A stretch of 32,000 bases of DNA from Candidatus Absconditicoccus praedator (GTDB lineage: Bacteria > Patescibacteriota > Gracilibacteria > Absconditabacterales > Absconditicoccaceae): contig NZ_CP054059.1 of NCBI RefSeq assembly GCF_021057185.1, positions 900,001 through 932,000 on the forward strand. Reading direction: 5' to 3'. Of this stretch, positions 2,104 to 27,419 are shown piece after piece. The position numbers and the translations under genes were made by a program. The notes under the pieces were generated by a model, which made no database searches, was not told where the DNA came from, and worked only from the letters and a program-made list of their open reading frames with translations. Position 1 is the stretch's first letter, and the number at the start of each line of letters is the position of its first letter.

Positions 2104-2110
2104 AATAAGA
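2104..2110. repeat. target-site duplication, left copy (aataaga)
   Basis: Identical 7-mer immediately outside both IS ends (2104-2110 and 2999-3005). Confidence 0.85.
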
Positions 2111-2998
2111 TGTAAGAAAAGGTAGCGTTGTTAAAAAATTATCAGTAATAGAACTTTTCAATAACTTCATAAGGAGTTTTATTATCTAGTCATTTATGTG
2201 GCTTTACAGTGTTATATCGATTTACAAATCTTTTTAAAGACATTTTTCTATGTTCTGATGACTTAAAAACTTCCTTACTGTGCCACATATCGATTAATGT
2301 TCTTATAACCCTCTCTGCTTTTCAATTTGTTCTTGGTGTTCTAACTTTTGTAAATTTTTGCTTTATTCAGCTTTTTACACACTCTTTAACAAATTCATGT
2401 TTATCATTTCATTTGTACTCAACTCAATTATCTGAGTACACACACTCAATAGTGTAAGGACATTCATCTATTACCTGTCTAAGAAACATAGACGAAGATA
2501 CTTGTGTCTTATCTTGCATTATAGCTACATAAAGTTCTCTAGAATAGTCGTCTATTCATACAAATAAGTATTCAGACTTTTTGTTTGCTGCTCATCTTAT
2601 AAGAGGTAGTTTTTTTGTGTCAAAATGCATCATTTCTCAAGGGTAGTTTTTATTGTATCTTCTAGCTTCTTTGTTTTTCTTTTCTATTATCTTAGATTCT
2701 ATTTTAGCTAATCTAAGTAATCATCGCCTAATGTTTCTAAATCTATTATTGATAGAATTTCTTGGTAAAAACTCTTGAGTTCTTGCTCTCTTTATTATCT
2801 TGTATATGGTAGGCAATGATACATTGAACTTAATATGTAAATCCTTAGGCTTCATTCATCTTTTATAGTATTCCCAGACCTCTTTTCTCTGGAGTGGTGT
2901 TAGTCTTGTATTTTTATGTATATTCATTACATAGTTTGTTATCAAATAAATAGTATTTTGTATACACATTATTTTTAACAACGCTATATAATCTTACA
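2111..2998 (-). mobile_element. IS481-family insertion sequence (888 bp)
   Basis: Terminal inverted repeats tgtaagaaaaggtagcgttgttaaaaa (2111-2137) and the reverse complement of 2972-2998 (tgtaagattatatagcgttgttaaaaa) agree at 22/27 positions and show TGT..ACA termini. One DDE transposase ORF, flanked by a 7-bp direct duplication. Confidence 0.85.
2139..2927 (-). CDS. IS481-family DDE (rve-type) transposase
   Basis: 262 aa under code 25. N-terminus MNIHKNTRLTPLQRKEV resembles the IS481 HTH signature. Catalytic-core motifs HFDTKKL, VYSDNGVEY and TPRTNGKAERV are present. The Gly of TNGKAE and several others are TGA codons. Confidence 0.85.
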
Positions 2999-3005
2999 AA
3001 TAAGA
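2999..3005. repeat. target-site duplication, right copy (aataaga)
   Basis: See the left copy at 2104-2110. Confidence 0.85.
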
Positions 3006-5332
3006 TATACAATAGATGATATTACAAAATCACAATTTGTAAGTAATAAGATTTCTCAACTGTCCCAAAAAATATTATCTGCAGATTTTGATATAAATGA
3101 ATTTGCAGAAATAATACTAGATGGTGTAATGCAGATAACTCACTGAAAAATTGCTTATATATGACAGGTAGAGGACGGAAAACTCATAATAAATGCATTT
3201 ACCAAAGCGGTTTGGAATGAGTGTGGACTTTGGGATAAAAATACAGATACAAATGTACAGATAGAAAAGCCTTGATGATTGCTGTCTTTGCCATTCAACA
3301 ATAAACAATGATTTTATACAAATGATGCACCAAATCACCCAGATTCTACCGGAGTTCCATGTGGGCATGTCAAGATACAAAATTTCTTGTGTGCTGTTGC
3401 AAAATCCCAGTGAAAAGAAGATGATATTGTATGACAAATAGGTGTAGCAAATACTCCTAATGATTTTGATGAGGCGGATTTGGAACTTATCCAGCAGTTT
3501 GCAAATATTTTTTGACTTGCTATAGAAAAGCATAAAAGAGAAAAACAACAAAAAAAACAGCTAGAATTCCAAAAATATCTTACAGAAATATGAAGCTCTT
3601 TTTTGTATATACAGTCAGAAGCTGAATTTAGAAGCCAACTAGAAAATGCTTTGTTGCTTATGAAAAATTTTTTTCAAACAGATCAGGTTTATCTTTTTGA
3701 GATGAATACTGATGATAGTTGTGTAAACACCTTTAATAGTATTTGACATATTAATATAAATGGCTCAGTACCAGAAAGTTTGTCATTTCATCAATTCAAA
3801 AATTTTTTTGAAAATATAAGAAATTGAAATCATGTTTTGTATTCCAATGTAGATGAGATGGAGGATATACCAGAAAAAAAGGATTTACAGCAAAGAGGTA
3901 TTAAAACATTTATAGCATTTCCTATAATGCAGTGAGATGATTTTTTTGGTTTTTTCTGACTCAATACTACCAATGAGTTCAAGAAATGGACTGATTCAGA
4001 CTTATTAAGATTGAAGACATTTTCTGCATTAATTACCAATGCTTTCCAAAAACATAACTTGGAAAAATCCATGCTTGAGGCAAAAAGACAAGCAGAAGAT
4101 GCCAACCAAGCAAAATCAAAATTTCTTGCTAATATGTCACACGAAATAAGAACACCTATAAATGTAATTTATGGAATTTTAGATGAACTAACTCAATGAA
4201 ATGTTGATGAGCATACATCAAAATTTTATAAAGAACAATTAGAAGAACAAAAAAGAAAACTTTTGTGAATTATAGATGATATTCTGGATATCTCAAAAAT
4301 AGAGGCAAACGAAATTGATTATGAACCCGAGAAGGTAAATATAACATATTTAATCTCTTCTATTGTCTCTTTACAAAAATTTTCAAACAATAAAAATATA
4401 GATATATCTTGTCATATAGATCCTTTGTTGGAAGATGAGTATTTTTGGGGTGACACTCAAAAAATTTCTCAAGTAATAACTAATCTTGTGAATAATGCAG
4501 TAAAATTTACAAGTGAATGATGTGTACAAGTGTCTATAAACCAAATTGAAGAATCTCAAGACTCCAAAAAAATTCAAATAGATGTAGAAGATACTTGAAT
4601 ATGAATCCCAAGTGACCAGCTTGATCAAGTATTTGAAAATTTTGTACAAACAAATCATCCATCAGTTTGATATTGATGAACTTGATTAGGTCTTGCAATC
4701 ACCAAAAATTTAGTAGAAATTATGTGATGAGAAATAACAGTCTCTAGTCAACAATGAAGTTGAAGCTGTTTTAGTGTTGTTTTGCCTTTCCAAAAAACAG
4801 GAGAGTCAGCAGAATCAGCATATTTGCCTGAACCTGTTCAAGAATCAGAAGAAAAAAGTGTTGAGTATTACCAGCAGTTCAAAGTACTAATAGTTGAAGA
4901 TGAGCCTATAAATCAAATGTTGTTGAAAAGTATTTTAGAACAAAGATGATATCAGGTAGTTGCTGCTGATGATGGTGAACAAGCGTTGGATATATATCAA
5001 AAAGGAGACTTTGATATTATAATTACAGATATTCAAATGCCTTGAATGTCTTGAGATGAACTAGTAGAAGAGATCAAACAAAATTCAAATATTCCTGTGA
5101 TAGCTTTGTCAGCATTTGCTACTAGTGAAGAAGTAGAAAAGTTTAAAAGAAAATGATTTAATCACTATCTAACAAAACCAACAGAAAAAGCTGATATTTA
5201 TAGAGTGTTAGATTGGTTTTTGGAGGATAAAGCTTAATTTTTTGAGTTTTTTACTAAAATGTTTTGATAATTTATTTGAATTTCAAGAAAATATTGTTAT
5301 TATGATATAAGTTTAACCTTATTAAACCAAAA

Positions 5333-5887
5333 ATGTTGCACTATATCACTTGAAAAGTACTAGAAACCAATAAGAAAAAAATTATAAAAAACGATTTTTT
5401 TGGAGTAGAGGCTGTGTATTTGTGAGAAAAAACATCTTGAGATTTTTTACTGTATCCTCATTTTGATCAGAATCATTCAACTTACTTTTATTATGCTTTT
5501 GATAATTTTGAACAAAAAGATTTTTTCACACTATCAATGAAGCTACCTTGAGTATGAGCCAAAACAGCATATTTGATAAGTATGCAAAACCAAGAAAATC
5601 TCAAAAATGCAATAGAAAATTATGATCTAAAATTTTTTCAAAATATACCTTGAATCTGAACAAAAACTGCAAGAAGAATAATTGTAGAACTCAAGTCATC
5701 AATAGAGTCAAAAGACCTTTCAAAGCTTGATATAGATGAAAAATTGTACAATGATATAATAAAAACTTTAAAACCTTATTGATTTGATACAGAAAAAGTA
5801 AAAGTATTGCTTTCAGAATGTGATATAAAACTTGAGAAAAGCAAGATTAATGAAATTATTAAGTGGTTGCTTGACAACTACAATTAG
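5333..5887 (+). CDS. ruvA: Holliday junction branch migration protein RuvA
   Basis: 184 aa. N-terminus MLHYITGKV, two helix-hairpin-helix motifs LPGVGAKTAYLI and IPGIGTKTARRIIVEL, and a C-terminal domain III-like tail. Stop TAG 5885-5887. Confidence 0.85.
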
Positions 5888-6004
5888 ATTGACTAAAAAT
5901 ATCCAATCAAATTTCCAATTTACAGGCTTGATTTTTATGTTTTTTTTGATAAAAATAAGTATTTATAATTAAATCTACTGATGTTCAATCATTGAATACT
6001 TGGT

Positions 6005-8422
6005 ATGAATGCAAGAAACCTTTTGTACATAAAAAAATTCAATCCCAAAAAAGCAATCCGTCTTGCAGACAACAAGATAAAAACCAAGAATTTCTTTCAA
6101 GAAAGAGGAATACCTGTGCCAGAAACTTATGCAGTTATCAACAATCGTAATGAATTATACAATTTTGATTTTGCATCTCTTCCAAAGAAAAATTTTGTAG
6201 TAAAACCCAACAAATGAAGTAAATGAAGGTGAATTTTTGTAACAAAGCTTTTGGAAGATTTGCCAGAATGATATTCTGTTCAGCAAAATACAAAATGTTT
6301 TTTTGAAAAATACTTGGGGATCAAAAAATCTAGTGATTACAATTATTATTATAAAACAGGAGGTGAAGTTGTAAATGATGATGTGTATAGAAGATATCTT
6401 GTAGACATATTGGATGGTAAGCATTCTATGACACTTTGAGGAGACAAAATTCTTATAGAAGAAAAACTATCTCCTGGAGATAATTTCAAAAGGTTTTGTC
6501 AGTATTGACTAGCTGATATAAGAGTGATAGTATTCAACCTTATACCAGTTGCTGCAATGGTTAGAGTGCCAACGATAGAATCTTGATGAAAAGCTAATCT
6601 TGCACAGTGATGAATATGATTTTGAGTAGAAGTAGGTTCTGGGAAAATCAAATCTATGTACTACAAATGACAAATTTTCAAGAAAAAATTTCCTTGAGCT
6701 TTTGAAGATTTTCAAAACAAAAAATTGCCATTTTGGAATGATATATTATTATATAGTTCAAAAATTCAGTATTTTGTAAATCTTGGTTATCTTGCTCTTG
6801 ATTGGGTAGCAGTCAAGGACCAACCAAAACTTTTGGAAGTAAATGCTAAAGCTGGTTTGGAAGTACAAACAGCCAGTGTCTTGTGACTTAGAAAAAGGCT
6901 TGAAAAAATTTCTGATGTTAGTGTAAATAGCCCAGAAAAATGAGTAGAAATATCTAAAAGTCTTTTTAACTCTTCAAGATGAAATCTTGTGGCAATGTGA
7001 AAAGTTTTGTATTTGAGTCAAAAAGCTAATATTATCTTGGAGTCAGAAGAATGAGACCAACAAATACCTGTAGTGGTAAGAGTAGATATTAAAAAAGAGA
7101 AAAATTATATATCATCCAATCTTTATGAAACTGTCCAAGAACATAATCTTTGAGATACGGTTTTGGATATATATGAAAGCGAGATTAGGTTAAAAAACCC
7201 AGTTTTTCAGTGTTCGGATAAACTCAAAAAAAATGAGATAGTTTTGTGACATCCTTCTGTAAGTGAATTTTATATCAAACCAATTCACAATGTTATTGAT
7301 GAAATAAATATTATTAGCGACAAAAACATACTAGATGAAGAGAAAGAATATTTGTATACTATAGATCAACAACTCAAAAAAATTCAATCAAAATTGAATA
7401 TTACAAAACTGCTAAAACCAATAAATTATTTGGATGAGCTTGACAATTTTATTACTTGGAATTGAAATTATAATCCAAAATTTGTATACGATTGGCCAAG
7501 TACTGATAGATTGCAAGAAATAGAAGATTGGTTAAAAAAACTAAAGGAAAATTATTTCAATGAAAACTTTTGATTGAAAAGTAATTTTGCTTGATTGTTC
7601 GAAGAAAAAATAAACGAGCTTGAAATTGTTTTGAATCTTATAAATTCTTATAAAAGAGAAAAGTATTCTGATATACTCAAATATAATGAAATGCTATACT
7701 GAAAAATGGAGGATGAAATACTTCAACTTTCCAAACAAAAAATATTTATGGATGAGCCATCAGACGATGAAGTTTTATGAGAGTATCTAACTTTCTCTCA
7801 AACAAAAAAAATAATAAAAAAATATCTAGATGAAAGATGAATTACTGGAGTAAGAATACAAGTTGATCCTTCTTCTTATGCTAGAATTTCAATTGTTAGA
7901 TGAAAAAAAATTACCATAAAACTTTCTGGGCATGCCAAATTTAGGCAAAAAGAGATATACTCAACACTTGCTCATGAGATTGATGTTCATCTTAGAAGAT
8001 ATCTTAACTGACTAAAAACTTGATGGAATATTCTTGCCAATTGAACTTGATTTTATATAAAAGATGAAGAATGACTTGCTGTATATAAAAGTATAGAAAA
8101 TTTACCTGAAGATTATTTTAAAGTTTGAATATACAAAAAGTATTATCTTCTGAATCAAGCTCAGAAACATTCATTTTCTAGACTTGTAGATATGATTAGA
8201 TGATTGGAAAATAGAACTTTGAATTGAGCATTCAAAACTGCATTGAGAGCAAAAAAATGAGTTCAAAATACTTGATTTGTTGACTGATGAGCTATTTTTA
8301 TGAAAGACAAGATATATCTTGATTGATATATGAAAATAAAAGATTGGATAGAAAACTGATGAGATGTAGAGCAGTTCATGAAATGAAAAATAAAAATAGA
8401 TGATATGAGTAAGATTTTTTAG
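6005..8422 (+). CDS. fusion protein: alpha-L-glutamate-ligase-like ATP-grasp domain + DUF1704 (QEGLA-motif / MATCAP-like HExxH carboxypeptidase) domain
   Basis: 805 aa under code 25, about 45 in-frame TGA. The N-terminal third (MNARNLLYIKKFNPKKAIRLADNKIKTKNFF..GIPVPETY .. ADIRVIVFNLIPVAAMVRVPTIESGGKANLAQGGIG .. LEVNAKAGL) matches my memory of the RimK-related alpha-L-glutamate ligase-like ATP-grasp family. The C-terminal part has HEIDVH (7973-7990) and EEGLA (8066-8080), typical of DUF1704. Stop TAG 8420-8422. Confidence 0.75.
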
Positions 8423-13449: not shown

Positions 13450-14763
13450 ATGTGACAGAAAAAAATACTATTATCAGCTTTGGTGCTTTTGTCTATAATA
13501 TTCTTTACTGGTTGTGATGAACAAGTAAGCAGTGTTGAACCCAAAGACTCAGATTCTAATGGTTCAGATGTATCAGACTCTAATGCTTCAGATTTAGATT
13601 TTTGAGAACCAGAAGATATTGATATTAGTGAAATAGACACAAGTGTTTTGGATACCAAAAATTTTGATTTTGATATATTTTATGAATTGATATGAGAACA
13701 AGTAGAAAAAGATGAAAATTTATTCATTTCTCCATATAGTATCCATGCTGCCTTTTTGTTGGCATATATGTGAGCAGATGGAGAGACTAAAGAACAAATG
13801 TCAGAAGTTCTGGAAACAAAAGGGGTGGATATTAATGATGTAAAGAAAGCATATTATGCTCAAAAAGAAAAATTACAGGATTATTCTACTGAATGAGAAT
13901 TATCAATAGCTAATGCATTGTTTTTGGATCAGGGTATACCTTTTAGAGAAAATTATGTAAAAGATGGGCAAAGATACTTTGATGCAAAAGTTGAGGATAT
14001 GCCAGATATAGTGGATCCAATAAATGAATGGATAGAAGAACAAACAAACTGAAAGATAGAGGATATGTTAGGTGAACCGGGTGAAAAAATTGATCCTTTA
14101 GTAGTAGCTTATTTGATAAATGCAATATATTTTAAAAATGATTGGGAGACCGAATTTGACTCTATTAGAGATATGGATTTTGAAACTCCAGATGGACAAA
14201 AAGAAGTGGATATGATGTATCTTGAAGATGATCACAGATACGTAAAAGAAGAAGAATATCAGATGGTGTCAAAATGATATGAAGATGAAAGTTTTGCATT
14301 TCATGCAATAATGCCAAAACAGGAAACTTTGCAGGAATTTTATGAAGATTTTGATAGGGAAAAGTTTGAAGAAATAAAAACACAAAGAAGGAAATGAGAA
14401 ATTGAATTGTATTTACCAAAATTCACATTTGGCAGTAGTTTGGGATTGGTAGAAGTTATGCAGGATTTATGAATAAAAGATGCATTTGACTCAAGTTTAG
14501 CAAATTTTGATAATATGGTTGATTTAGAAGAATTAGGACAAAATGTATATATAAGCGATGCTTTACACGATACATTCATAGAAGTTAACAAGGAATGAAC
14601 TGAAGCAGCAGCGGCTACAGTTATAGAAATAAGAGCTGAATCAGCTCAACCACCATCTCCAGTATTGAAGTTTGATGAACCTTTTATGTTTATCATAGAA
14701 GAGGAAGAAACCTGACAAATTCTATTTATGTGACAGATGATGGAGCCAGTGATAGAAGAATAA
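13450..14763 (+). CDS. serpin-family protease inhibitor, predicted lipoprotein
   Basis: 437 aa. Signal peptide with lipobox (LSIIFFTGC), an acidic Ser/Asp linker, then a serpin core (NLFISPYSIHAAFLLAY, INAIYFKNDWETEF, LPKFTF). Inhibitory-type hinge EGTEAAAATVIEIRAES, then KFDEPFMFII. Confidence 0.9.
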
Positions 14764-14868: not shown

Positions 14869-17800
14869 ATGTGAACTAAAACAAAGATTAGCTTAATAAG
14901 CACAGCAATAACAGCAATTATAATCACAGCAGGATACCATCTTTTTACCTATGCCAATCTTCATCACATACAAACAGATGAAGAATTCTTGAAATCCCTG
15001 GACTGGATGTATGAAAACGAGCTTACCCAATACAATCAAGTAGAATCTTTTAGACCGGAATTTAATCTTAGAAGAGATGAAGCAGCACATTTCTTTGTAA
15101 ATTTTGTAGAGGAAGGGCTGGAGCAAACTCCAGAGCAAGAAGAGGAAATTCCTGATTTTGCTGATTTAGGTGAAGCACATCAGGACCTAATACCTTCTAT
15201 AGAAAAAGCAGCAGAATATTGACTGATAAGGTGAGATGGTGGCAGCAATAACTTTAGACCAGCAGATCCTATTTCCAGAGCAGAGTTTTTTGCTGTAGCA
15301 GTTAGAGCAGTAGATGGAGAGTATTCAGAAGATACAAACCCTTGGTGGGAGAATTATTTTGAAGCTGCTCAGGAGCTTGATTTAACCAAAGAGTCAGATG
15401 TTATGGCTCAAGACAGAAACATTTTAAGGTATGAAGCAGGACTTGTGCTTTTTAGATCAGTTCATGATGAATGAGAGTATGAATTCCAGCCAAAAGCCCA
15501 AACTATGGAAATTGCATTTGATGAAGAAATGGATCAAGAATCAGTACTTGCAAATATGAAAACTTATCCCAAGGTAGAATATGATGCAAGTTGGGAGGAT
15601 GACAAAACTTTGAAACTTGAAATTTTGGATGATTTTAGCACAGAAGAAACTTTATTGGTAAATATTACCCAAGATGCTAAAACTGCAGCCTGAGAAAACC
15701 TTCCGGAAACATTATCAAGAGAGTTCAAGATAGATGCTACTCCAGAAATTGATTTTGTGTCTCCTAAATGAGATATTCAAGACCCAAATCAGAATATAAC
15801 TGTGAGATTTAGTTCTCCAATGGTTCCTTTGACGGCTCTTGATGACCAGCCAGAATGTCCTATAAGTTTTGATCCCAAGATAGACTGAGAATGTACATGG
15901 ATAACTACTAGTACATTTCAGTTTAGACCAGAAAAAACACTACCATTTGGATGAGAGTATGAGGTGGTTATTCCTTCTTGATTCCAAAATCAAGCTTGAA
16001 ATCCAATAACTGAATCCAAAAATTTCCAGATAAGAACCCCTGATTTTGAAGTTGTAAATACAAATAATAGAATAAACAAAGATGAGCCACTGAAGTTGGT
16101 TTTCAACGATGATGTTGATATGCAAGATGTGATGGATAATTTTGAAATGAGAGGTTATGAAACACATCAGTTAGATTTTGAATTTTGACAAGAAGAAACA
16201 AGTATTGAATGAGAATACAAAACACAAGAAAATATAATAGAAATTTTCCCTGCAGAGTGAGACCGAGGATACGATACTAGTTTAGATTTTAGGATATCTG
16301 ATCAGCTAACTTCTAAAAGATGAAATGTTCCTTTACAAACTGATTATGAAAGTACACTTAGTACAGATGGTTTGGTATTAGAGTATGGCTCTTTTATTTA
16401 TCAGGATCCTGAGCAAGAAGACAAAAACTTAGTTTCAAATCTTCAGCAAGCTGATAATAATAGGATAGTTCTCCCAGAAGATCCAAATATTCTAATAGAA
16501 TTTAATGAAGAAATTGAGTTGGATTATGATCTTTTTGATATAGATTATGATTTTGAACTTTCTTATATCAAAGAACAAGAAAATGAAACTATCCAAGAAA
16601 ATCAAAAATGAGTAATTATTGATATACAGGGGCAGATATCAGACGAATTAAATATAGAAATACTTGCTTCCAATATTAGTTCAAGTGATGATATAACTCT
16701 GGATTTTGGAACCAAGGATTATAATCAAATACAAGACTATGAGATGATAAACTATAAAAAACATTGCTTAACTACATCTCATCATATACCCAGAACTTCC
16801 AGGAACGAAGAAGCTTTTGAGTTTGATGGTTATTGAGAGGTGGAAAGAATACAAATAGTAAGATCACGGATGGATGACAAAGACGAATATGACTGTTACT
16901 ATGAAGAATGAAAAAATAAATATATTCTTGAAACTAATCTTGATCCTGATACTCAATATAATCTTAACATAAGCAGTGATTTGTTGGACAAAGATAACTA
17001 TCCTTTGGATCAGGATTATGAATATCAGTTTACTACTCCAGAAGTCAAAAACGAAGACAAACATGTTGATATTATTGACCAGGAATGACTTGTAATGATT
17101 CCAAGTAGTATCAAACCTTTGACTTTGCCAATCAAATCAGTGAACATAGACACTGTAAATATTAGAGTTTGTGAATGAGAAGTAAATCCTTCCAGGCATA
17201 ATTACATAGACAACAAAGACTGTCAAACTGCCAGAGTAGATGTTGAAAACAAATGATTTCAGCCAAGTTTGAATACTGTTGATCTAGAACAAGTTTTTGA
17301 ACAAGAGTTTGATTCAAATATAGTAAAAGCCAAGGTCTACAAACTTGAAGAAGATATGACAGAATCCCAAAAAGAAAGTTACCAAGAGGATGAATTAACT
17401 CATTCTACCAGAGTTTATAATATAAGTGATGTTACTGCTACCTTGAAAGAGGGTAAAGAAGATATTTTATGGCTCAGAGATTACAACCAATGAGAAAATC
17501 TTGCCAACAATATAGATAATATTACAGCTTATGAAATAAATAGACATCATCGCTGAACACATCCTTCTGTTGTTGGTAGGCATGATATAGATTTTGAACC
17601 AAAACAAAACTGACTTTATGAGTTGGAAAGTATTCCATCAAATTCAGACCTTGTAATAACTTTGGAAAATCAGGATAAAGTACTTGTAACTAATTCCGGT
17701 AATGAACTGTCTGAATGAGATGCCAAAACTTATATTTTTACAGATAGACCTTTGTACAAACCAGGTGATGAAGTAAATATCAAATGAACTGTTAGAAATT

Positions 17801-20800
17801 TTTATTCTGAAGCTTATCAGATACAGGAAGATAGTATACCTTTGAGAGTTAGAGATAGTAGGTGAGAGACTATGATAAGTGAAACTCTTAAGCTGGATGA
17901 GTATTGAAGTTTTCAGGCAGGATTTGATCTTCCTGATGATGCAAATCTTGGTGAATACACTGTAAGAGCTGGTAATGATAATTTGAATTTCAGTGTAGAA
18001 GAGTTTGAAACTCCTGATTTTGAAGTAGAAGCCACTGCCAGAGAGGATGATTATCTTCTGTGAGAAACTGCTCAGGTAGATATTGCCGCAAATTATTATA
18101 TGTGACTTCCTGTAGCCGAGGGTGAGGTAAGCTATGAATTAACAAGTGAAGATTATTATTTTGATTGATGAGGGGTACAAGGTTACCAGTTTGGTGAAAG
18201 AAGAAGTTTTTGGTGGCAACCAGATTCTGGAAGCAGACGTGAAGATAGGTGAGAACTTATATTGGATAATAACTGACAAGCAGTTTTGGATCTTGATCTA
18301 GAAGAACAGGATCAAGAAGACAAGATCTATAATCTATCTTTAAATGTACAGGATCCAGAAAGCTGACAAAATATAGCTCAAAATCTTTCTTTCAAATGAC
18401 TTAGAACTGAAAAGTTTGTAGGTGTGAATTTTGATGATTTTAGTTATGATTATCTGGATACCGCCAATATAGATCTTATAGCAGTTGATATTGATTGAAA
18501 TAGACTATCTCAAAAACAAATAGATTTAGAAGTGAAAAAAGTAGAACATCAACACGATGAAGTTGGTCAACAAAGAGAAACCACCAAAGATACGGTTATG
18601 AGCCAAACTTTGACAACTACTCAAGATGGTACAGTAAATACTGATTTTACTTTTGATGAGCCTTGAGAGTATGAGTTTGTGATAAGCACTCCTGATGGAA
18701 GTTATAAAACCACAAAAACATTTTATGTAGGATGAGCAGATGTATTGTCTCCTGGTCAGGAAGACAATGAAATTAATGTAATTCCTGAACAGCAAACTTA
18801 TGATGTGTGAGACACAATGAGAGCAACAATACAATCTCCTCATACTTGAGTACAAGCTATGCTAACAGTAGAAAAAAACAACAAAATAATGGATTCTAGA
18901 ATAATTGATATTGATGAGTACAATCAGGAAGTACAATTAGAGATCAAAGAAGAGTATATTCCAAATTTTGATATATCAGCATTTATAATAAAAGATGTTA
19001 CAACCATACAAGATGACTTCCAAGACTTAGAAGAAGTAAGAAACGAAATGTCTCAGATAGAACAAGATTTACAAGAAAGATTGGACATCCCAAGAATACC
19101 TGGTCCTCCAATAGTTCCATATTATGATGTAATAATACCACCATTGCCACCAGAAGTTGATGATATGGACGAAGAAGAACAAAATCTTTATGAAGAGTGG
19201 GTGGAACTAAGAGCTCAAGAACAAGAACTTTTATCAAATCTTTTGCCAAGTTATTATGGATGATTAGAAACCATAAAAGTAAATACAGATTATGTGAAAC
19301 TTGATGGACAGGTAAGTTTGGACAAAGAAATGTATGAACCAGGAGATGGTCAAACAATTGATCTTGAAATTACAGACAATGAGTGAAATCCGGTTGATTG
19401 ACAGGCAACAATCAGAGTGATAGACCAGGCTTTGTTGGATATGATGGACAACAAACAGGATATACTTGAGTTTTTCTACTCAAAACAATCAAACAACATC
19501 TCAACATCAAGTAATCTCCAAAATATTATCCAAAGAATTCATTTCCCTGATCAGTTAGATGTTCAGGTGGAAGAAGACTTTGAAACCCAACAAGATGATG
19601 CTCAGTTTTATGGTGAAATTATGGAAGAATCTGCAGATATGCAAGCAGATACCAGATCTGCAACAGAAGATGCTGCTGCTCCTGGGGATGATGAAGCAGA
19701 AGTTAGAGAAGATTTTGAAGATTTGGCATATTATCAGTCAGTAGTAGATGTACAAAACTGACAAGCTCAAATACAAGTAGACCAACTTCCTGATAATCTA
19801 ACTACTTGGGTAGTAGATGGTTTTGTGCATACTCAAGATACCAAAGTAGGGGAGTTTGAAACTGACTTCCAGGTACAAAAACCTATTGGTATATTAGAAC
19901 AAATACCTAGATTCCTGATCTCTGGAGATGAGCTGATAATAGCAGCTCAAATTGCTAACAATACCAATACTGCTCAAAATGTGCAAACCAATCTTGAGAT
20001 TAGCAATGCAACAAATACCAATCCTACTCAGGAAGTAGAAGTTGGACCTTGAGAGACAGAGCCAGTAAGATTTCCTGTAGAAATTGATAGTTTGTGAACT
20101 CAGGATATCAAGAATTTTGAGTCAGAAATTACTATATCTGCAAATGCAGGAGAGTATCAGGATGCAGTAAGACATACAAGAAACATCCAGCAACCAAGTA
20201 CTGCAGAATATGTGTTTACCAATGGTTCTACAGAGGATATAAGTTATGAAGAACAAGTTAAGATCTCAGAGATAATGGAAGAAAACTGATATTTGGAAAT
20301 TACTATGTGAGCAACTATTCTTACCAACCTAATGCACAATCTGGATGATTATTTTAGTTATCCTGGTGAGAGTCTTAGAAGTAGATTGGGATTCCTGGAT
20401 ATAGCTGAAAGTATGAGAAGTTTGTATCAGGGTGTAAACAAACTAGATGAATTTGAAGAAATTACAGTTTATGATAGAGATAATAATGAATATACTACTA
20501 TCCAAGAAGTAGAATCCAAAATCAAAGATGAAATGGATATATATCAAGAAGATGATGGATGACTTAGAAACTTCCAGGATAGTTGTTGGCATACTCGCCA
20601 ATCTTGTAGTAGTTTTGCTTTGTCAAAATCATATCTAGAAATGGATTTGGATATTGATGGAGTAGACAATGAACAGCTACTGGATTATTACAAATCAGAA
20701 CTTGAAGAAAAAATTGAAAGAAGTAGTTCTAACAAGAGAAACATTTCTTATTTTATGCCTTTGGCTGTGCAGTGAGAGTATGATTTTGTAAATGAACACT

Positions 20801-21912
20801 TTGAACCAAGAGATGACCTAAGCAACAAAAGAAAAATACAATATATCAATCTTTATGAGTTGATGCCCGAAGATTGAGAAAGAGCTGATGAGTTTTATGA
20901 AGATCTGAAAAACTCTATATTGATAGAAGCAAGAGGTAGTTTGTTACCGGCAGATTTGGATTATTCAAATAACATTATCTCTACTGCCAAAATGCTACAG
21001 TTGATGCTTGATTATGGAGAAGAAGAAAGACTACAGGTAGAGAATATGGCAAGGTGGCTTTTGGCAAACAGGGACGAAGAATGAGCTTTTCATGCCAGAA
21101 ATATTGTGCCTATCATAGATGCTTTGGACAAATACGTTGATCAAACAGGTGAGCTTGATAATGTTGATTTTGATGCAGCAGCTTATTTTGAAGAAAATAA
21201 TATAATGGAAGCAAACTTTGATATGGACAACAGATTTGGATTAGCTCACGATAAGTTTGATTTCCAAGATTATGTGAATTTTGGGGAAACTCATAGTCTG
21301 TGATTTGAAAAAGATGGAGAGGGTAGGCTTTATTATGATGTAGGATTAAGATACCATATACCAAACGATCAGATTACTCCAAGAGATGAATGAATGATAG
21401 TAAGCAGGAATTATTATGATTATGATGAATACCAAGATGCTCATGAAAGACAGTGTTTTACTCCAATATGGAGATGAAGATGGTGATGATCAAATTGTAG
21501 AAATGTAAGGGTAGAAAATATTGATTCTGTCAGTGAAGCCAATCATGGTGATTTCGTAGTGTGAGAGGTAGAGTTGACTGTTCCTTATGAAAGAAATGAT
21601 GTGGTTTTGAGGGATTATATCCCTTCTGGTGCAGAGGTTTTGAATGTGGATTTTGATACAGTGTGAGATGATGTGGCTGAGGTAGTAGGGCAAACTAGTG
21701 ATAGGCGATGATGATTTGATCATATAGAGCAAAGGAATGATATGGTATATTTGTATGCTGAGCATCTTAGGTCTGGGACATATACTTATACTTATGTAAT
21801 GCAGGCTAGTTATGAAGGTAGCTTCAATGTTCGTCCTGCTAGGGCTGAGGTTTTGGACAGACCAGAGGTTTTTGGTAGGAGTAGTGGTAAGGTTTTTGAG
21901 ATTAGTAGGTAA
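14869..21912 (+). CDS. alpha-2-macroglobulin-family giant surface protein with N-terminal SLH-like repeats and no thioester motif
   Basis: 2347 aa, a single frame-1 ORF under code 25; all nine frame-1 plus-strand track ORFs between 14989 and 21303 are pieces of it. N-terminal signal anchor and SLH-like segments (FADLG..GLIRGDGGSNNFRPADPISRAEFFAVAVRAV). MG-domain signature YIFTDRPLYKPGDEVNIKGTVR. Bait-like acidic stretch followed by REDFEDLAYYQS..LPDNLTTWVVDGF. TED-like helical region, and C-terminal receptor-binding-like end (GTYTYTYVMQASYEGSFNVRPARAE). TAA 21910-21912. Confidence 0.8.
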
Positions 21913-21979: not shown

Positions 21980-22008
21980 TTGATAAATTAACAAATTTGT
22001 TTATAAAT
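21980..22008 (+). promoter_or_regulatory. sigma70-like promoter
   Basis: TTGATA (21980-21985), 16/17-nt spacer, TATAAA/ATAAAT (22002-22008). This favours ATG 22046 over the in-frame ATG 22007 as the start. Confidence 0.45.
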
Positions 22009-22045
22009 GCTTAAAAGGCTTTTATTTAGATTATCAAAAGTGCAT

Positions 22046-24010
22046 ATGATCATAATTTTTAATAAAAACGATATATTGCTAGATTTGCTAATTGACTGAA
22101 ATCCAAGAGATATTACGGATGAATATCTAAAAAATATATTAGAAGAACTATATAAATACTGACCAATTGTTCCCCATATAGAAATAAAATGAGAAGAAGT
22201 GAGAATAGAATTAGATATACCATCTATTGAAGAATATGAAAACAAACTACAAGAAGCTACAGAATTTGCTACTCGCTGATCATATCACAAAGCAAGAGTC
22301 TTGATTGATGACTTGTTAGAAAAGTATCCAACTGTATCTGATTTTTATAGAATAAAATGACAAATTTTTTATGAAACTTGAAAACTAGATCAAGCAGAAA
22401 AAAATATAATTGAATGATTAAAGCTAGAACCTGATAACAAATGGTGTTTGGTAGTCTTAGGAAATATTTATCAAAATAAAGGAAAAATTGAATTTGCAAA
22501 AAACTTGTACCTAAAAGCAATCCAAAAAGATCCAAATGATATATATGCACTAACAAATTATTGAGCTGTGAATTTGCAAGAATGAGATTATGAAGAAGCA
22601 GAAGCTTCTCTTGATCAATCTTATAAAAATGATCCTGATTATAATATTACAAACTACAATTTGGCAGTACTTTATAATTATAAAGATCAGTTTTATAAAA
22701 GTTTTTATCATTGAATAAAGGCAATTGAACAATCTCAAAATGATGAGAATATGAAAAATTCTATTATGAAAGTAGTTTTTGATTCTGCAAAGAAATATTC
22801 ATATTATTATTCTGTACAAGAGCTTTATGATAAATACAAACAAGAATTAGAACAAAGATCACAGAAATCAATCCAAGTTAACGAAGACAAAAATTTGCAG
22901 GTATGAGCAATCATAAAAATTGCAGAATATCATTGAAACAATGAACATAAGATTTTTTATAATCCACAAAATCAATACTACAAACATTCTATAATGCATG
23001 AATTAACTCATCTCAAATTGATTGAAGATGCAAGAGACCAAAAAAATAATAAAATATTTGCACAAACCAAAGAAAATCAAGCAAAATTCATAAAAGATCT
23101 AATATGAGAAAGTATGGATTTTTCAAAATCAGCTTATACAAAAGATCAAATTGATTACTTTTCTCAAAATATAAATCTTCAGTTGTACAATCAACCAATT
23201 GATCTAATAATAGAAGAATATCTTTTTGAAAACTATGAAGATATAAGACCAATACAGTTTTTGAATATTGTGAATATGGTAAAACAGTGAGTGGAAATAT
23301 CTAATAATAAAGATATAGAAAAAAGTACTCCCAAGGTGGTATATGAAGCAAATGTAATAATGAATATTGTCCAAGCATATTTTTTGGAAGATTTGTTTAG
23401 TGTAAGTTTCATCAATGAATTCAAGAAAAATAAGCTTATCAGAAAAGCATGGAACATTTATCAGGATTATAAATCAAAAAAGGATAGCTTAGAACCATGA
23501 GATGAATACGAACTTATTAACTATCGAGCAGAAGAGTTGTGATTATCTTGATATTTTAGTTTGATTGATGAAGAAGAGTTTAGTAGTAATGATTTTGAAG
23601 TTACAGACAAGAAAGATGAAGAACCAATAGAGTATGAAAATGTTGATAATTTCAAAAGTGATTATTTTGATATCATCAAAGACTATAAAGATAAATGAAA
23701 AATTGATGAATCTGAGATAAATATGGCTATTGTGATGTATTGTGTATGAGCAATACAATATTTGGAAAATTTAGATTTTGAAAAAATCAAAGAAATTGCA
23801 TTTGAGATATGAATGAAGTGAGCTGGTGGAATATCTTATTGAGATGATACTCAGTATGAACTAAAATCAATTCCTTGAAAAAAGTTTACCTGATATCAGC
23901 TGTTGGCATATATGTATGTTTCTTGGAAAATCATAGAGCCAACTATGGATGTTGGATTGGATTATTCTCAAGAGTATGAGTTAGCAAAAAAGATATTATG
24001 AAAAGCTTAA
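22046..24010 (+). CDS. TPR-repeat protein with an HExxH motif
   Basis: 654 aa. The N-terminal third has TPR-like repeats (..GNIYQNKGKIEFAKNLYLKAIQKDPND..ALTNYGAVNLQEGDYEEAEASLDQSYKNDPD..). SIMHELTHL lies at 22997-23011. The C-terminal half is unrecognised. TAA 24008-24010. Confidence 0.6.
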
Positions 24011-24074: not shown

Positions 24075-27000
24075 ATGGTAGATGAGTCAAAAAAACTATA
24101 CAAAATTAATGGTGAAGAAATACAATGAGTTGATACAAAGTTTGGAAATGCGTGAGAATTATCCTCAGAAAAAGCAAAGATTAGATGAGTTATTAAGTGG
24201 ATAATAGATAGAGCTTATGAAAAATGATTTTCAAAAGATTGGATTCAAGAGGCTCTTGATAATTATATAAATTATGGATCTTGAAAAAATAAAGAAAAAA
24301 ATGAAAATACATATAGAGAAATCAAGGTGTCTATATATAACAACTTGGAAAATAATAAAAATAATTTAAAAAAGTTTTTTAGAGGTGAGAATAATACAAA
24401 AAAATTATGAATTCGAAGTGTAATAATAGATTGAGAAGAACTGTTAAATTCTTCTATACTAGATAAATTAAATATAGTTATTTTTGAGCTATCAAATAGT
24501 AGTAGAAAAAATGCTAAGACACTATATAATACAAGGAAAAACGAGAATAATGAGGTTTTAAATTTCTTTGCATGGGATGATAAATTTTGAAAAAATACTA
24601 AAGAATGAGATTTAGTATTTTTTGTTAATAAATCTGCAAAAGAAGAAAATGATGAGTTTTCTATTCTGGTAACAAGAATATATGATAGATGATATGAACT
24701 AAAAAATAAAAATAATGACCAGAATCAAAAATTTTACTATTTAGAAAAAGATGGAAATCAAAAAAAATTATATTATATATGAAATGAAGAAGATGCTCCT
24801 GAATGAGTTGATAATAGTAATAATTTATCAAAATGGGAATGGTCAGAAAATAATCAAAAAACTTTTGTTGTTTTTGAAGTTTTATATGAAATCAGAAATA
24901 TTACTGATTGGAGCTGATATAGAAACTTAGGTGCTGCTCAGTTTACTTATATAAAAAGTCTATATGATGATAGACTTCAATTTATTATAGAGACATTAAG
25001 AAATAATTTATCTGAAAATTTAAAAGATAAAAATTTTTTAAACGTTTATATTAACTCTTTAGATGTTCCTTTATGAGATGTTGATATTTATTATGAAGAT
25101 AGTAATGATAATAAGTCTATAAATATTTGGTGAAGATTCTTTGATAAGGTTAATAAAGATAAAACTTCAACAATTATTTTTGATGTTATAAATCGATATA
25201 ACATTTGATTTGAATCAGATATTAGTTATAGAAAACAATTATTATTATGATTGATTATATCATTCAATAAAGATTATGAGGATTTTATTAAACTATTACT
25301 AGCAGATATATACATTAGATATCTTAGAGGAAAGTCAGTATGACAGAAATATCCTTGAAATTTTAACTTTAATTGATGATGTATAAATATAAATTGATTT
25401 AAAGAATTATTAACTTTAAATATTAAAGAAAAATTATGAGAAAACGACTTATCATTACATGACAATGAAAATGAAAATTATTATACTATAGAAAAAAATG
25501 AAGAAAATAAAGAAATTGTTCAAATATTTGAATCCGATGATATAACAGAAGGTTTTAAAAGTTTTCTTGATTCAATATCAATAAAATTTGATTATATATA
25601 TCTTGCTAAATCTTACCAACAAATTAAGAATATTGTTGAAAAATATAAAACTTGAGAAAACAAAGAAGAGGATCAGAAATCATTTAGTGTATGAATTATC
25701 TGAAAATGGTGAGAATGAAAAACGAAACTTGTAAGTCTTTTGAAAGAGTATTATTTAGAAAATGAGAATTATAGTGTCTATGAGGTAGATGTATGGAAAT
25801 GATACTCCATAAACTGAGTAGAAACAGAAAAAAAGTGATTTATAAAATATATTTACAGAAAGTTAATAGAAAAAGAATTATGATATGAAGAATATAAATA
25901 TTGAAAATCCATAACTGATAAAATAAAAAACTCTTATATTTGAATATTGATAACATTTTTAACTAAAACTATATTCTTTTTATTTTTCTTCATAATTGAG
26001 AGTTTTTTAAAAACTTTTTATAATAAAACTTATTTTGGTAACTATTATACTTCTTCATCATTAAAACAATTAAATTTGAAATACTATTATGATAAGTTGT
26101 ACAATAATATCTTCTTGTATCAAAGATTTTCTTATGCGAAGTTTTTCTTTATATTTTATGTTTTTGGTTTGATATTTTTCATTTTCACTTATAATTTAGA
26201 ATGTCTTATATACTTTGAGTGTCTAGAAAAAGAATCTTTAGAACAGGCTGAATATATTCCTGAGTATATAAAAGAAAATGAGTATATAATTACTTTTTTA
26301 TTATTAATTCCTTTTTTTATTTTGTTTTTGTATAAGTATTGATTTAAGACTAATATTTATGACAAGCAAATACAGGATTCTAATTTGGCAGATAAATTTG
26401 GTAATGAATTATTTAATATTATTTGAGATAACAATAAAAAAATAATAATTCTTGAAAATATTGATAGACTAAATCCAGATCAAATAATTGATGTGATAGA
26501 TCTCACAAAAACAGTTTTGGACTTCCCAGATACTGTATATATAATTCCAATAGATCCAAATTTAGTTAAATGTTGACTAGAAAATAAGTATAAGGACTTC
26601 AACGGACAATCAAAAGAAGCATTTAATCCAGATTTATATTTGGATAAAATAATACAATTCCCCTACTATTTAGTTAACCCTTATCTTTTAAATATAAAAA
26701 AAATAACGAAAAAAGAAATTGAAAAATTTAATTTAAAGTTATATTGATTTTTGTCAACTATATCACAAGATAATGATGATTTTAAAAGATTTGAGAGTTA
26801 TTTTGATCATCTTGACTTTAAAAGAAGAGTACTTTGTAATTATAATCCTAGAAAAGAACAAATATTTAATCAAATAAAAAAAGTGTATTCAGAAATATAT
26901 AATAATGCTATTGATTATTATAATGTTAAAAATAATAATAATGAATTCTATCAAAGATTGTTTTATAATGAATTCTATCAAAGATTGTTTTATAATGAAT

Positions 27001-27419
27001 TCTATCAAAGATTATTTTTGGTTTTCTTTGCTATAAGATTTGCTGACATTAGTCTATTTATGAAAATTGAAAAAAAACCTTATATTTTACTAAAATTATT
27101 TTGATATATATCAAGTGATATTGAAAAAATTAATAATGACAATAATTTAGAAAAAAATCTATTTACTCTTGAAGTATCCAATATTTCAATTGAAATTTTG
27201 GAACAACATAATTTAGAATGTATAAACTCCAAAAATTATATAATAGAAAACAATTTATTAGAAAAAGAGGAAATCGTGTTGCTATTAGAAATTTTAGGTA
27301 ATTTTTATCCATTATCTGATAAAAACTATAATAACTATGACTATTTAAAAGAATTAACTGTTGATCATTTACAAAAGTACATGAGAAGGGCATATGTCCC
27401 TCTTAGAAAAGATAACTAA
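24075..27419 (+). CDS. KAP-family P-loop NTPase with a long unknown N-terminal region
   Basis: 1114 aa. I checked frame 0 codon by codon from 24075 to 25952 with no TAA/TAG; the track ORFs 25947, 26751 and 27198 are all in that frame. Walker A is SVGIIGKWGEGKT (25692-25724), with all four Gly encoded by TGA. Hydrophobic helices are inserted after it (25947-26340), then IIILENIDRLNPDQIIDVIDLTKTVLDFPDTVYIIPIDPNLV..YLDKIIQFPYYL, the KAP Walker B and downstream signature. Confidence 0.75.
26940..27020 (+). repeat. 27-bp in-frame tandem repeat x3 inside the KAP gene
   Basis: aatgaattctatcaaagattgttttat at 26940, 26967 and 26994 (third copy diverged at its end). Encodes NEFYQRLFY x3. Confidence 0.9.

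Follow-up and report, generated by a model that had tools for sequence, protein, structure and literature searches.

A three-domain ATP-grasp, retropepsin-like and MATCAP-like protein of Candidatus Absconditicoccus praedator and its 7TM_transglut partner: a candidate system for adding and removing C-terminal residues

Here we analyze a gene of Candidatus Absconditicoccus praedator located in a stretch of 32,000 nucleotides (contig NZ_CP054059.1, positions 900,001 to 932,000 of the forward strand; hereafter the window), which encodes one polypeptide made of an ATP-grasp ligase domain, a degenerate retropepsin-like domain and a MATCAP-like (DUF1704/QEGLA) metallocarboxypeptidase domain. A mechanism at the level of these domains is well supported because homology, conserved active sites and genome context point the same way: the protein would add C-terminal residues in an ATP-dependent manner and remove them in a zinc-dependent manner, together with a membrane protein of the 7TM_transglut family. 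The full statement, that this three-domain cytoplasmic enzyme and its 7TM partner set the length of an acidic C-terminal tail, appears to us evenly balanced; the identity of the acceptor, the amino acid that is added and the physiological role are what we infer. New here are the tie between two unlinked genes, a Glu-Glu-Glu end that is unique in the proteome, the decay of a catalytic DTGA motif, and an acidic tail limited to one class. An earlier sequence-only reading had noticed the joined ligase and carboxypeptidase; this observation was confirmed, and its interpretation is partly supported. The features of the gene are as follows.

5981..8422, + strand: whole coding sequence, ATP-grasp ligase plus degenerate retropepsin-like plus MATCAP-like carboxypeptidase (code 25, conserved architecture)
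6014..6913, + strand: ATP-grasp amino-acid ligase domain, residues 12-311, RloC/RimK-related (PF14397, TIGR02291, Foldseek)
6998..7315, + strand: degenerate, probably non-catalytic retropepsin-like (RimB/RloA/DUF785-type) domain, residues ~340-445 (relatives, alignment, fold)
7079..7096, + strand: R367-V-D369-I-K-K372, putative remnant of K-I-D-T-G-A (alignment)
7361..8416, + strand: MATCAP-like (DUF1704/QEGLA) metallocarboxypeptidase domain, residues 461-812 (PF08014, TIGR02421, 7z5g)
7973..7990, + strand: HEIDVH, predicted zinc-binding and catalytic motif, H665, E666 and H670 (residues 665-670; MATCAP alignment)
8066..8080, + strand: EEGLA motif, residues 696-700, G698 encoded by TGA (MATCAP alignment)

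The fusion gene, its genetic code and its three domains

Once TGA is taken as a sense codon, positions 5981..8422 of the window (+ strand) form a single open reading frame (ORF) of 813 amino acids with 45 TGA codons in frame, and both the ATP-grasp and the DUF1704/MATCAP domains are found in it by Pfam profile hidden Markov models, as the sequence-only reading had claimed for a single polypeptide. With translation table 11 the same region falls apart into short ORFs. At the 45 TGA columns glycine accounts for 158 of the 316 aligned residues of eight distant homologs, tryptophan lying outside the top eight residues at these columns, and genome-wide the frequency of TGA is 46 per 1000 codons, that of all GGN codons together only 19. 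Because glycine dominates the TGA columns and TGA outnumbers GGN across the genome, the organism uses code 25, in which TGA encodes glycine, and TGA is its main glycine codon. The TGA codons of the fusion gene sit in glycine-rich motifs (KGSKGRG, SGGKANLAQGGIG). Code 4, in which TGA encodes tryptophan, was ruled out, since 45 TGA in 813 codons are far too many for tryptophan and are located in glycine motifs and glycine columns. The start had previously been placed at 6005, giving 805 amino acids. We moved it to the ATG at 5981, eight codons 5' of 6005, as the family conserves the eight added residues: the N-terminal M-x-x-x-G-I-L-G is kept, with I6 and L7 nearly invariant. A scan for promoters and terminators at the fusion gene gave nothing better than shuffled sequences.

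The N-terminal part of the protein was matched by PF14397 (ATPgrasp_ST) at residues 12-311 with an E value of 6e-43 and 147.5 bits (gathering threshold 31.4). The best NCBIfam model for the ligase was TIGR02291 (alpha-L-glutamate ligase-like, RloC type), with 190.9 bits, a score that lies under the equivalog cut-off of 314.2. The domain also falls outside the RimK family (TIGR00768, 46.5 bits for a cut-off of 143.4), the match of the TTL profile to it stays under the cut-off of that profile (E 5e-4), and PF08443 has no match anywhere in the genome. The ligase residues K75, E160, E161, D274 and E286-x-N288 show no variation among 48 family members, nor among distant ones. When the ligase domain of the structural model was searched with Foldseek, the closest structures were ArgX, LysX and RimK (E 1e-6 to 1e-5), all of which act on the C-terminal glutamate of a protein. 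The amino acid added here would most likely be glutamate.

The C-terminal part was matched by PF08014 (MATCAP) at residues 490-811 (E 2.8e-21, 76.3 bits, cut-off 27), and TIGR02421 (QEGLA motif protein) aligned over the whole model to residues 461-812 with 84.5 bits, which is short of the equivalog cut-off of 338.65 bits and makes the domain a relative and not an equivalog. Human MATCAP (7z5g) was matched by sequence alone (E 3e-10), the identity to the C-terminal domain being only about 20%, and the MATCAP fold was recovered when the model was compared with 7z5g by Foldseek (E 1e-11, target-normalised template modelling (TM) score 0.67). In the alignment HEIDVH pairs with HEIGTH of human MATCAP and EEGLA with its EEGLA; the positions that the sequence-only reading had given for both motifs are exact. 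H665, E666, H670 and E697 are invariant in the 48 family members and in distant members, with E697 as the likely third ligand of the zinc. The substrate of MATCAP is the acidic tail of tubulin, and the enzyme was reportedly described only in 2022, as a tubulin detyrosinase. The C-terminal domain of the fusion protein is predicted, by analogy, to act as a zinc carboxypeptidase on an acidic C-terminal tail. We know of no function or substrate for the bacterial DUF1704/QEGLA relatives. Our search of the literature on DUF1704, QEGLA and prokaryotic MATCAP found no functional study of bacterial members, the sole functional hint on bacterial QEGLA proteins being a 27-fold induction at low salinity in Photobacterium (PMC10308900).

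Between these two parts a linker of about 200 amino acids had been proposed. Instead, the region holds a third domain, since residues ~340-445 are predicted as a compact folded beta domain (predicted local distance difference test, pLDDT, 80-95). At the same position, the closest relatives of the ligase domain that have no MATCAP part carry PF05618, the 'Zn_protease' family with the RimB/RloA retropepsin-like fold, and one relative (P0240, 916 amino acids) has all three domains, PF05618 included. The catalytic K-I-D-T-G-A of these relatives aligns with R-V-D-I-K-K of the fusion protein; the last strand is common to both (VIIGR..L..FLVDP in the relatives, IVLGH..SEFYIKP in the fusion protein), and an insert of about 55 residues in the PF05618 relatives is missing from the fusion protein. 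Residue 369 is aspartate in 40 and asparagine in 6 of the 48 family members, and the residues T-G-A of the retropepsin motif are replaced in the family by [LI]-[NK]-K. The decay appears stepwise among 194 fused proteins: D[TS]GA is kept in 3, D[TS] in 19 and neither in 172. An AlphaFold2 model of the isolated domain reached a pLDDT of 84, and the top 50 structures returned for it by Foldseek were nearly all of retropepsin or pepsin fold, including the DUF785 structure 2pma. From the intermediates and the fold, the middle domain reads as a catalytically dead relic of a retropepsin. Several results count against this assignment: a Pfam search with residues 316-480 gave no match even at E 10, the Foldseek scores are modest (E 2e-3 to 0.1, TM 0.36-0.49), and hhalign of the middle domain (SR1) with retropepsin domains gave a weak probability of 7%. 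PF05618 is absent from the whole genome. The AlphaFold model of the full protein, built from 48 family members and suggested by the earlier reading as a view of the inter-domain arrangement, has a mean pLDDT of 82.9 and leaves the geometry between the domains uncertain (predicted TM score, pTM, 0.54), a point against the mechanism proposed below.

The fusion is not rare. The full-length fused architecture was found in more than 120 clusters (90% identity) that are 43-94% identical to the fusion protein, and 194 fused full-length proteins were collected with identity down to 26%, organisms with the standard code included. In all, about 190 full-length clusters occur in Absconditabacteria and other Patescibacteria. 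A real stop or frameshift between the two halves, which would have undone the sequence-only reading, is effectively excluded by this conservation. The closest named relative is Candidatus Vampirococcus lugosii (Absconditabacteria/SR1), with 61% identity over the fusion protein. In the phylum-wide sample 58 of the 301 genomes were positive, with fused frames of ~770-860 amino acids and stand-alone frames of ~370-450 amino acids. A contig search with a narrow MATCAP alignment recovered 12 SR1-type loci only, and a second MATCAP gene in G001 was discarded as a false positive of a regular expression without Pfam support.

The same parts also exist as separate genes. In one genome (G153) an ATP-grasp::retropepsin gene whose DTGA is intact is preceded by a PKD-7TM gene and overlaps the beginning of a MATCAP gene that is separate from it. 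This split operon bears out the Rosetta-stone link drawn from the fusion by the sequence-only reading. The accompanying statement that the two activities are usually encoded by separate neighbouring genes fits G153 and does not fit the three stand-alone MATCAP genes that we examined, none of which has a ligase neighbour. Within the order, a MATCAP match was found in 97 of 141 genomes and in 55 of 79 high-quality genomes. Because only 55 of these 79 have it and some complete genomes of the order lack it, the fusion gene is accessory and not a housekeeping gene; its importance had been argued from housekeeping neighbours, of which only RuvA is common to the fusion locus and that of the nearest named relative. 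Database entries of these proteins carry domain names such as 'tyrosine/phenylalanine carboxypeptidase domain-containing protein', and we found no paper on the function of this fusion.

The recoding also affects the public records. Entries of the fusion and 7TM partner families are often translated with code 4, which puts W in place of Gly, as in EEWLA or ...NSSWTEEEEE. Such translations depress apparent identity and conservation and may mislead modelling. At the conserved Trp (TGG) columns W252, W275, W682 and W789, about one quarter to one third of the homologs show Arg; one such column of the fused-protein family alignment has W in 119 and R in 68 sequences. A reassignment of CGA/CGG to Trp has reportedly occurred in some Absconditabacterales, and the Arg at these columns looks like it in the alignment. 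CGA and CGG are absent from the fusion gene and are used 0.95 and 0.34 times per 1000 codons, respectively, genome-wide.

A conserved 7TM_transglut partner and its glutamate tail

The genomic context described by the sequence-only reading was incomplete, as it had missed a conserved 7TM_transglut partner that ties the gene to the RloABC and RimK-RimB systems. The genome holds one gene for PF14402 (7TM_transglut), at G000:C1:156282-157823 (513 amino acids, 48.5 bits), 750 kb away from the fusion gene, and the ligase and 7TM genes are not linked in an operon here. PF14402 is the only Pfam domain detected in the partner: its N-terminal 300 amino acids have no Pfam match and no transglutaminase ectodomain was found, partners in relatives bearing PKD or Y_Y_Y domains instead of this ectodomain. 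In L005, L006, L025, L029, L030, L031, L046 and G001 the 7TM gene immediately precedes the ligase gene, with gaps or overlaps of a few bases, and in L004 and L008 it is at most three genes away; linkage was seen in all the more distant relatives examined. Both genes are present in 74 of the order's 141 genomes; a further 23 have MATCAP only, 5 the 7TM gene only and 39 neither. The odds ratio for co-occurrence is 25, a value that is descriptive only, related genomes not being independent, and the two genes are within 10 kb of each other in 33 of 73 genomes. At least one of the genomes scored as MATCAP only is a sensitivity miss. The 7TM_transglut membrane protein is a conserved partner of the fusion module.

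In this genome the partner terminates in ...RFRPLMKNSGEEE, its tail residues being given also as ...LRFRPLMKNSGEEE. A terminal run of 2-7 Glu is present in 70 of the 71 partner homologs (28-100% identity), and the residues before the run vary. In four other families of the same class the partners encoded beside fused genes end in ...EE, as do the partners in L004, L005, L006 and L008. Out of the 992 ORFs of at least 150 amino acids in the proteome, 7 end in EE, and the 7TM partner is the only one with an EEE end; EF-G, RF1, a serpin-like lipoprotein and an enzyme resembling RluA are among the other proteins with an EE end. The positive-inside rule predicts a cytoplasmic location for the tail of the 7TM partner, and the fusion enzyme has no signal peptide. 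With these features the tail would suit both a RimK-like ligase, as an acceptor, and a carboxypeptidase of the MATCAP kind, as a substrate.

Other acidic proteins were also considered. The serpin-like lipoprotein is encoded in the window itself (13450-14763, + strand, 437 amino acids), has a signal peptide followed by Cys and ends in ...MMEPVIEE; it is an unlikely substrate because it is predicted to be extracytoplasmic. The gene of the 7TM partner belongs to a co-directional run (G000:C1:154600-164400, L009 6607-16387) of very acidic orphan proteins, of which those beside the 7TM gene have 391, 721 and 856 amino acids, 22-27% D+E and no Pfam matches. We rejected these as substrates, none having a terminal Glu run. 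Two small hyper-acidic ORFs, one of 140 amino acids, D/E-rich, just downstream of a stand-alone MATCAP gene (L024 7107-7529), the other of 80 amino acids at G000:C1:530485-530727 and ending in ...DEDEDEDEEDEE, might be genuine proteins, acidic and carrier-like, or else spurious frames.

A number of observations speak against the tail as the acceptor, and against the partnership itself being universal. In other classes of Patescibacteria none of the 120 PKD-7TM partners has an EE end and 104 of the 120 have net-basic tails. Partners with non-Glu tails occur in G153 (...IKTRK), L030 (...LRRS), L031 (...VDAD) and family f46 (...HDKSA), and in the neighbouring genus g2 the 7TM protein encoded next to the fusion is short, with ...KKYNKK at its end, the fusion protein retaining every catalytic residue. 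The 23 genomes of the order with MATCAP but no detected 7TM gene belong here too; at least one is the sensitivity miss mentioned above, and others have a stand-alone MATCAP gene, the 7TM gene and the ligase part having disappeared. The amino-acid specificity of the ligase, finally, is not legible from its sequence. A rule by which the Glu tail follows the fused architecture with a dead retropepsin was tried and rejected, as the fused genes of f46 and g2 pair with non-Glu tails and some loci with an active retropepsin have EE tails. Because the partners of other classes, of f46 and of g2 lack the Glu end, the Glu tail cannot be the general substrate of the module; it is confined to one class, with exceptions. 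Within this class it may accept residues, serve the dead retropepsin domain as a docking site, or do both. That the Glu tail of the 7TM partner is a substrate of the fusion enzyme is in our view a tentative proposal, somewhat below an even chance. The sequence-only reading had left the substrate unknown, and the Glu-tailed partner now gives a concrete, though not universal, candidate in this lineage.

Proposed activity, related systems and competing explanations

According to the mechanism that we propose, the N-terminal domain would be an active ATP-grasp enzyme of the RimK/RloC kind that extends a C-terminal carboxylate by amino acids, most likely glutamate, at the expense of ATP, and the C-terminal domain an active zinc carboxypeptidase of the MATCAP type that takes residues off singly. 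One polypeptide could thereby control the length of an acidic C-terminal tail. The best candidate acceptor in the lineage would be the cytoplasmic C-terminus of the 7TM partner, and the dead RimB/RloA-type retropepsin domain would serve as a binding or scaffold module that may dock onto the tail. Writing and erasing on a C-terminal tail, as first suggested from the sequence alone, is the most economical reading because the active sites are intact, the structural matches point to it and the same parts occur as split genes in G153. A more elaborate form would be a 'tail code', in which the encoded oligo-Glu end of the 7TM partner is lengthened and shortened reversibly, the dead retropepsin acts as a reader and the tail length tunes the activity of the 7TM protein. 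We regard this form as doubtful.

Three known systems share parts of this design. In Pseudomonas aeruginosa the rloABC operon groups a retropepsin (RloA), a 7TM_transglut protein (RloB) and an ATP-grasp protein (RloC) (Lormand et al., mBio 2025, PMC12239564). Strains without the secreted RloA proteases are rescued when RloB or RloC is missing as well, and in vitro RloA cuts polyglutamate, its in vivo substrate being unknown; the system affects osmotic tolerance, biofilm formation and antibiotic sensitivity (PMC12239564). In the module described here, an ATP-grasp of the TIGR02291/PF14397 kind (like RloC) shares its chain with a relic of the retropepsin (in RloA a peptidase for Glu-rich substrates), and the genome encodes the 7TM_transglut protein (like RloB). 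It differs in that the retropepsin is fused, predicted to be cytoplasmic and apparently dead, whereas RloA is secreted and active, in the additional MATCAP-type metallocarboxypeptidase, in a 7TM partner that has no inactive transglutaminase ectodomain and ends in Glu3, and in that the ligase and 7TM genes are unlinked and the ligase scores under the TIGR02291 cut-off.

In the second system the ATP-grasp alpha-L-glutamate ligase RimK extends ribosomal protein S6, which ends in Glu-Glu, and the retropepsin-like RimB removes Glu (PMC4741518, PMC11957791). Both RimB and RloA, the retropepsins to which the middle domain is related, cleave poly-Glu (PMC12239564). RimK is among the best structural matches of the N-terminal domain of the fusion. 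In contrast to RimK/RimB, the ligase described here lies outside the RimK family and the predicted eraser is a metallocarboxypeptidase instead of an aspartic domain. S6 ends in ...KMNKAK in this organism and was discarded as an acceptor.

The third comparison is with the enzymes of tubulin. The peptidase domain belongs to the same family as human MATCAP/KIAA0895L (7z5g, 7z6s), with the same fold and the same HExxxH and EEGLA motifs, and the tyrosination and glutamylation cycle of tubulin (TTL/TTLL with MATCAP) resembles the one that we propose, in which an acidic C-terminal tail would be written by an ATP-grasp enzyme and erased by a carboxypeptidase. Unlike in the tubulin cycle, there is no tubulin or microtubule-binding context here, writer and eraser share a polypeptide, and the ligase is RimK/RloC-like and not TTL-like. 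With the bacterial QEGLA proteins of TIGR02421 the fusion protein shares the DUF1704/MATCAP family and its motifs; those proteins are stand-alone and single-domain, and the score of the fusion is far under their equivalog cut-off.

The same genes could also be read as a system in which a free or exported acidic peptide, for instance poly-alpha-glutamate, is synthesised and degraded by the enzyme; the 7TM protein would then be an exporter, anchor or regulator, and the dead retropepsin would recognise the Glu tail merely as a docking site or as a mimic of a primer. RimK also makes free poly-alpha-glutamate, and free polyglutamate is considered as a substrate of RloA by the authors of the RloABC study (PMC12239564). 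The partners outside the class, which are mostly basic-tailed and yet tightly coupled by their genes to the ligase, are in keeping with such a peptide, as is genus g2, which retains the active sites without a Glu tail, and the extra ATP-grasps, GNAT and FGase-like amidohydrolase of larger versions of the module resemble a peptide-building pathway. Against this, the extreme C-terminus of 2-7 Glu found in 70 of the 71 homologs fits the need for a free C-terminal Glu carboxylate, and a cytoplasmic peptidase fused to the ligase would run a futile cycle on a product destined for export. To our knowledge 7TM_transglut proteins have no exporter-type motifs. We hold a free or exported peptide to be unlikely as the product.

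The substrate might otherwise be a small molecule or an envelope precursor, such as a sugar-nucleotide amino-acid amide or the stem peptide of peptidoglycan. PF14397 is annotated as 'sugar-transfer associated ATP-grasp' and linked to surface polysaccharide synthesis, a Mur_ligase_M/C gene lies a few genes from the fusion in L004 and L008, and Rlo mutants of Pseudomonas show cell-shape and cell-wall-antibiotic phenotypes (PMC12239564). However, the Mur-ligase gene stays in L023 and L024 though the ligase part and the 7TM gene are gone, so that its proximity reflects synteny and not a functional link; it is also absent near the fusion in the window, and Foldseek matched the two enzymatic domains best to ligases of protein tails and to a carboxypeptidase that acts on protein. 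An envelope precursor is accordingly an improbable substrate. Finally, that the fusion is an artefact, two genes having been joined through faulty assembly, a miscalled genetic code or the decay of a stop, to which the 45 breaks of the frame under the standard code might point, has a negligible probability in view of the demonstrated TGA=Gly, of a fused frame conserved in ~190 clusters, standard-code organisms included, and of a genome that is a complete single contig of 1.13 Mb.

Genomic neighbourhood and meaning of the fusion

A RuvA-like HhH gene (5264-5887, + strand) lies directly upstream of the fusion gene, likewise in Vampirococcus (L007), and in the distant relatives L005, L030 and L046 the 7TM-ligase pair comes after yebC-ruvC. 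The module seems to have been lodged in the ruv region since ancient times. Two genes upstream of the fusion is a hybrid histidine kinase (GAF-GAF-HisKA-HATPase-REC, 3129-5237, + strand), and at the distant locus L006 a GAF/PAS histidine kinase and a response regulator precede the 7TM-fusion pair; this proximity may be a coincidence or a regulatory link. Downstream, the window contains a very large ORF of 2347 amino acids (14869-21912, + strand), followed by ORFs of 667 (22007-24010, + strand) and 1114 amino acids (24075-27419, + strand).

An insertion sequence (IS) element with an rve-type integrase occupies window positions 2105-3003 (integrase ORF 2139-2981, - strand). The genome has about 11 copies, 99.8-100% identical; the one in the window is 3 kb upstream of the fusion and another (G000:C1:153453-154343) is 2 kb upstream of the 7TM partner. 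A rearrangement mediated by the IS may have separated the two genes. In Vampirococcus the fusion and 7TM genes are on different contigs too, so the split may predate the present IS copies. Larger versions of the module are found in L004 (10446-12596), L008 (10604-11047), L029 (7436-7978) and L046 (8104-11420), where a RimK-type ATP-grasp, a Mur-ligase-type gene, a GNAT, a FGase-like amidohydrolase or further ATP-grasp genes are added; none of these extra genes is beside the fusion in the window.

Whatever the substrate, the family clearly illustrates how a peptidase domain decayed once a second one had been recruited into the same chain. The fusion physically joins an Rlo-type ligase, a relic of an Rlo/RimB protease and a MATCAP-type peptidase, and the lineage supplies a concrete candidate substrate, a peptide ending in ...GEEE. 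If this tail is indeed the substrate, it would represent the first reversible cycle of the polyglutamylation type on a bacterial membrane protein and would offer a biochemical handle on two orphan families. It would also be the first bacterial substrate for enzymes of the MATCAP family. A tail code, if true, would be a prokaryotic counterpart, and possibly an evolutionary origin, of the writing and erasing on which the tubulin code is built.

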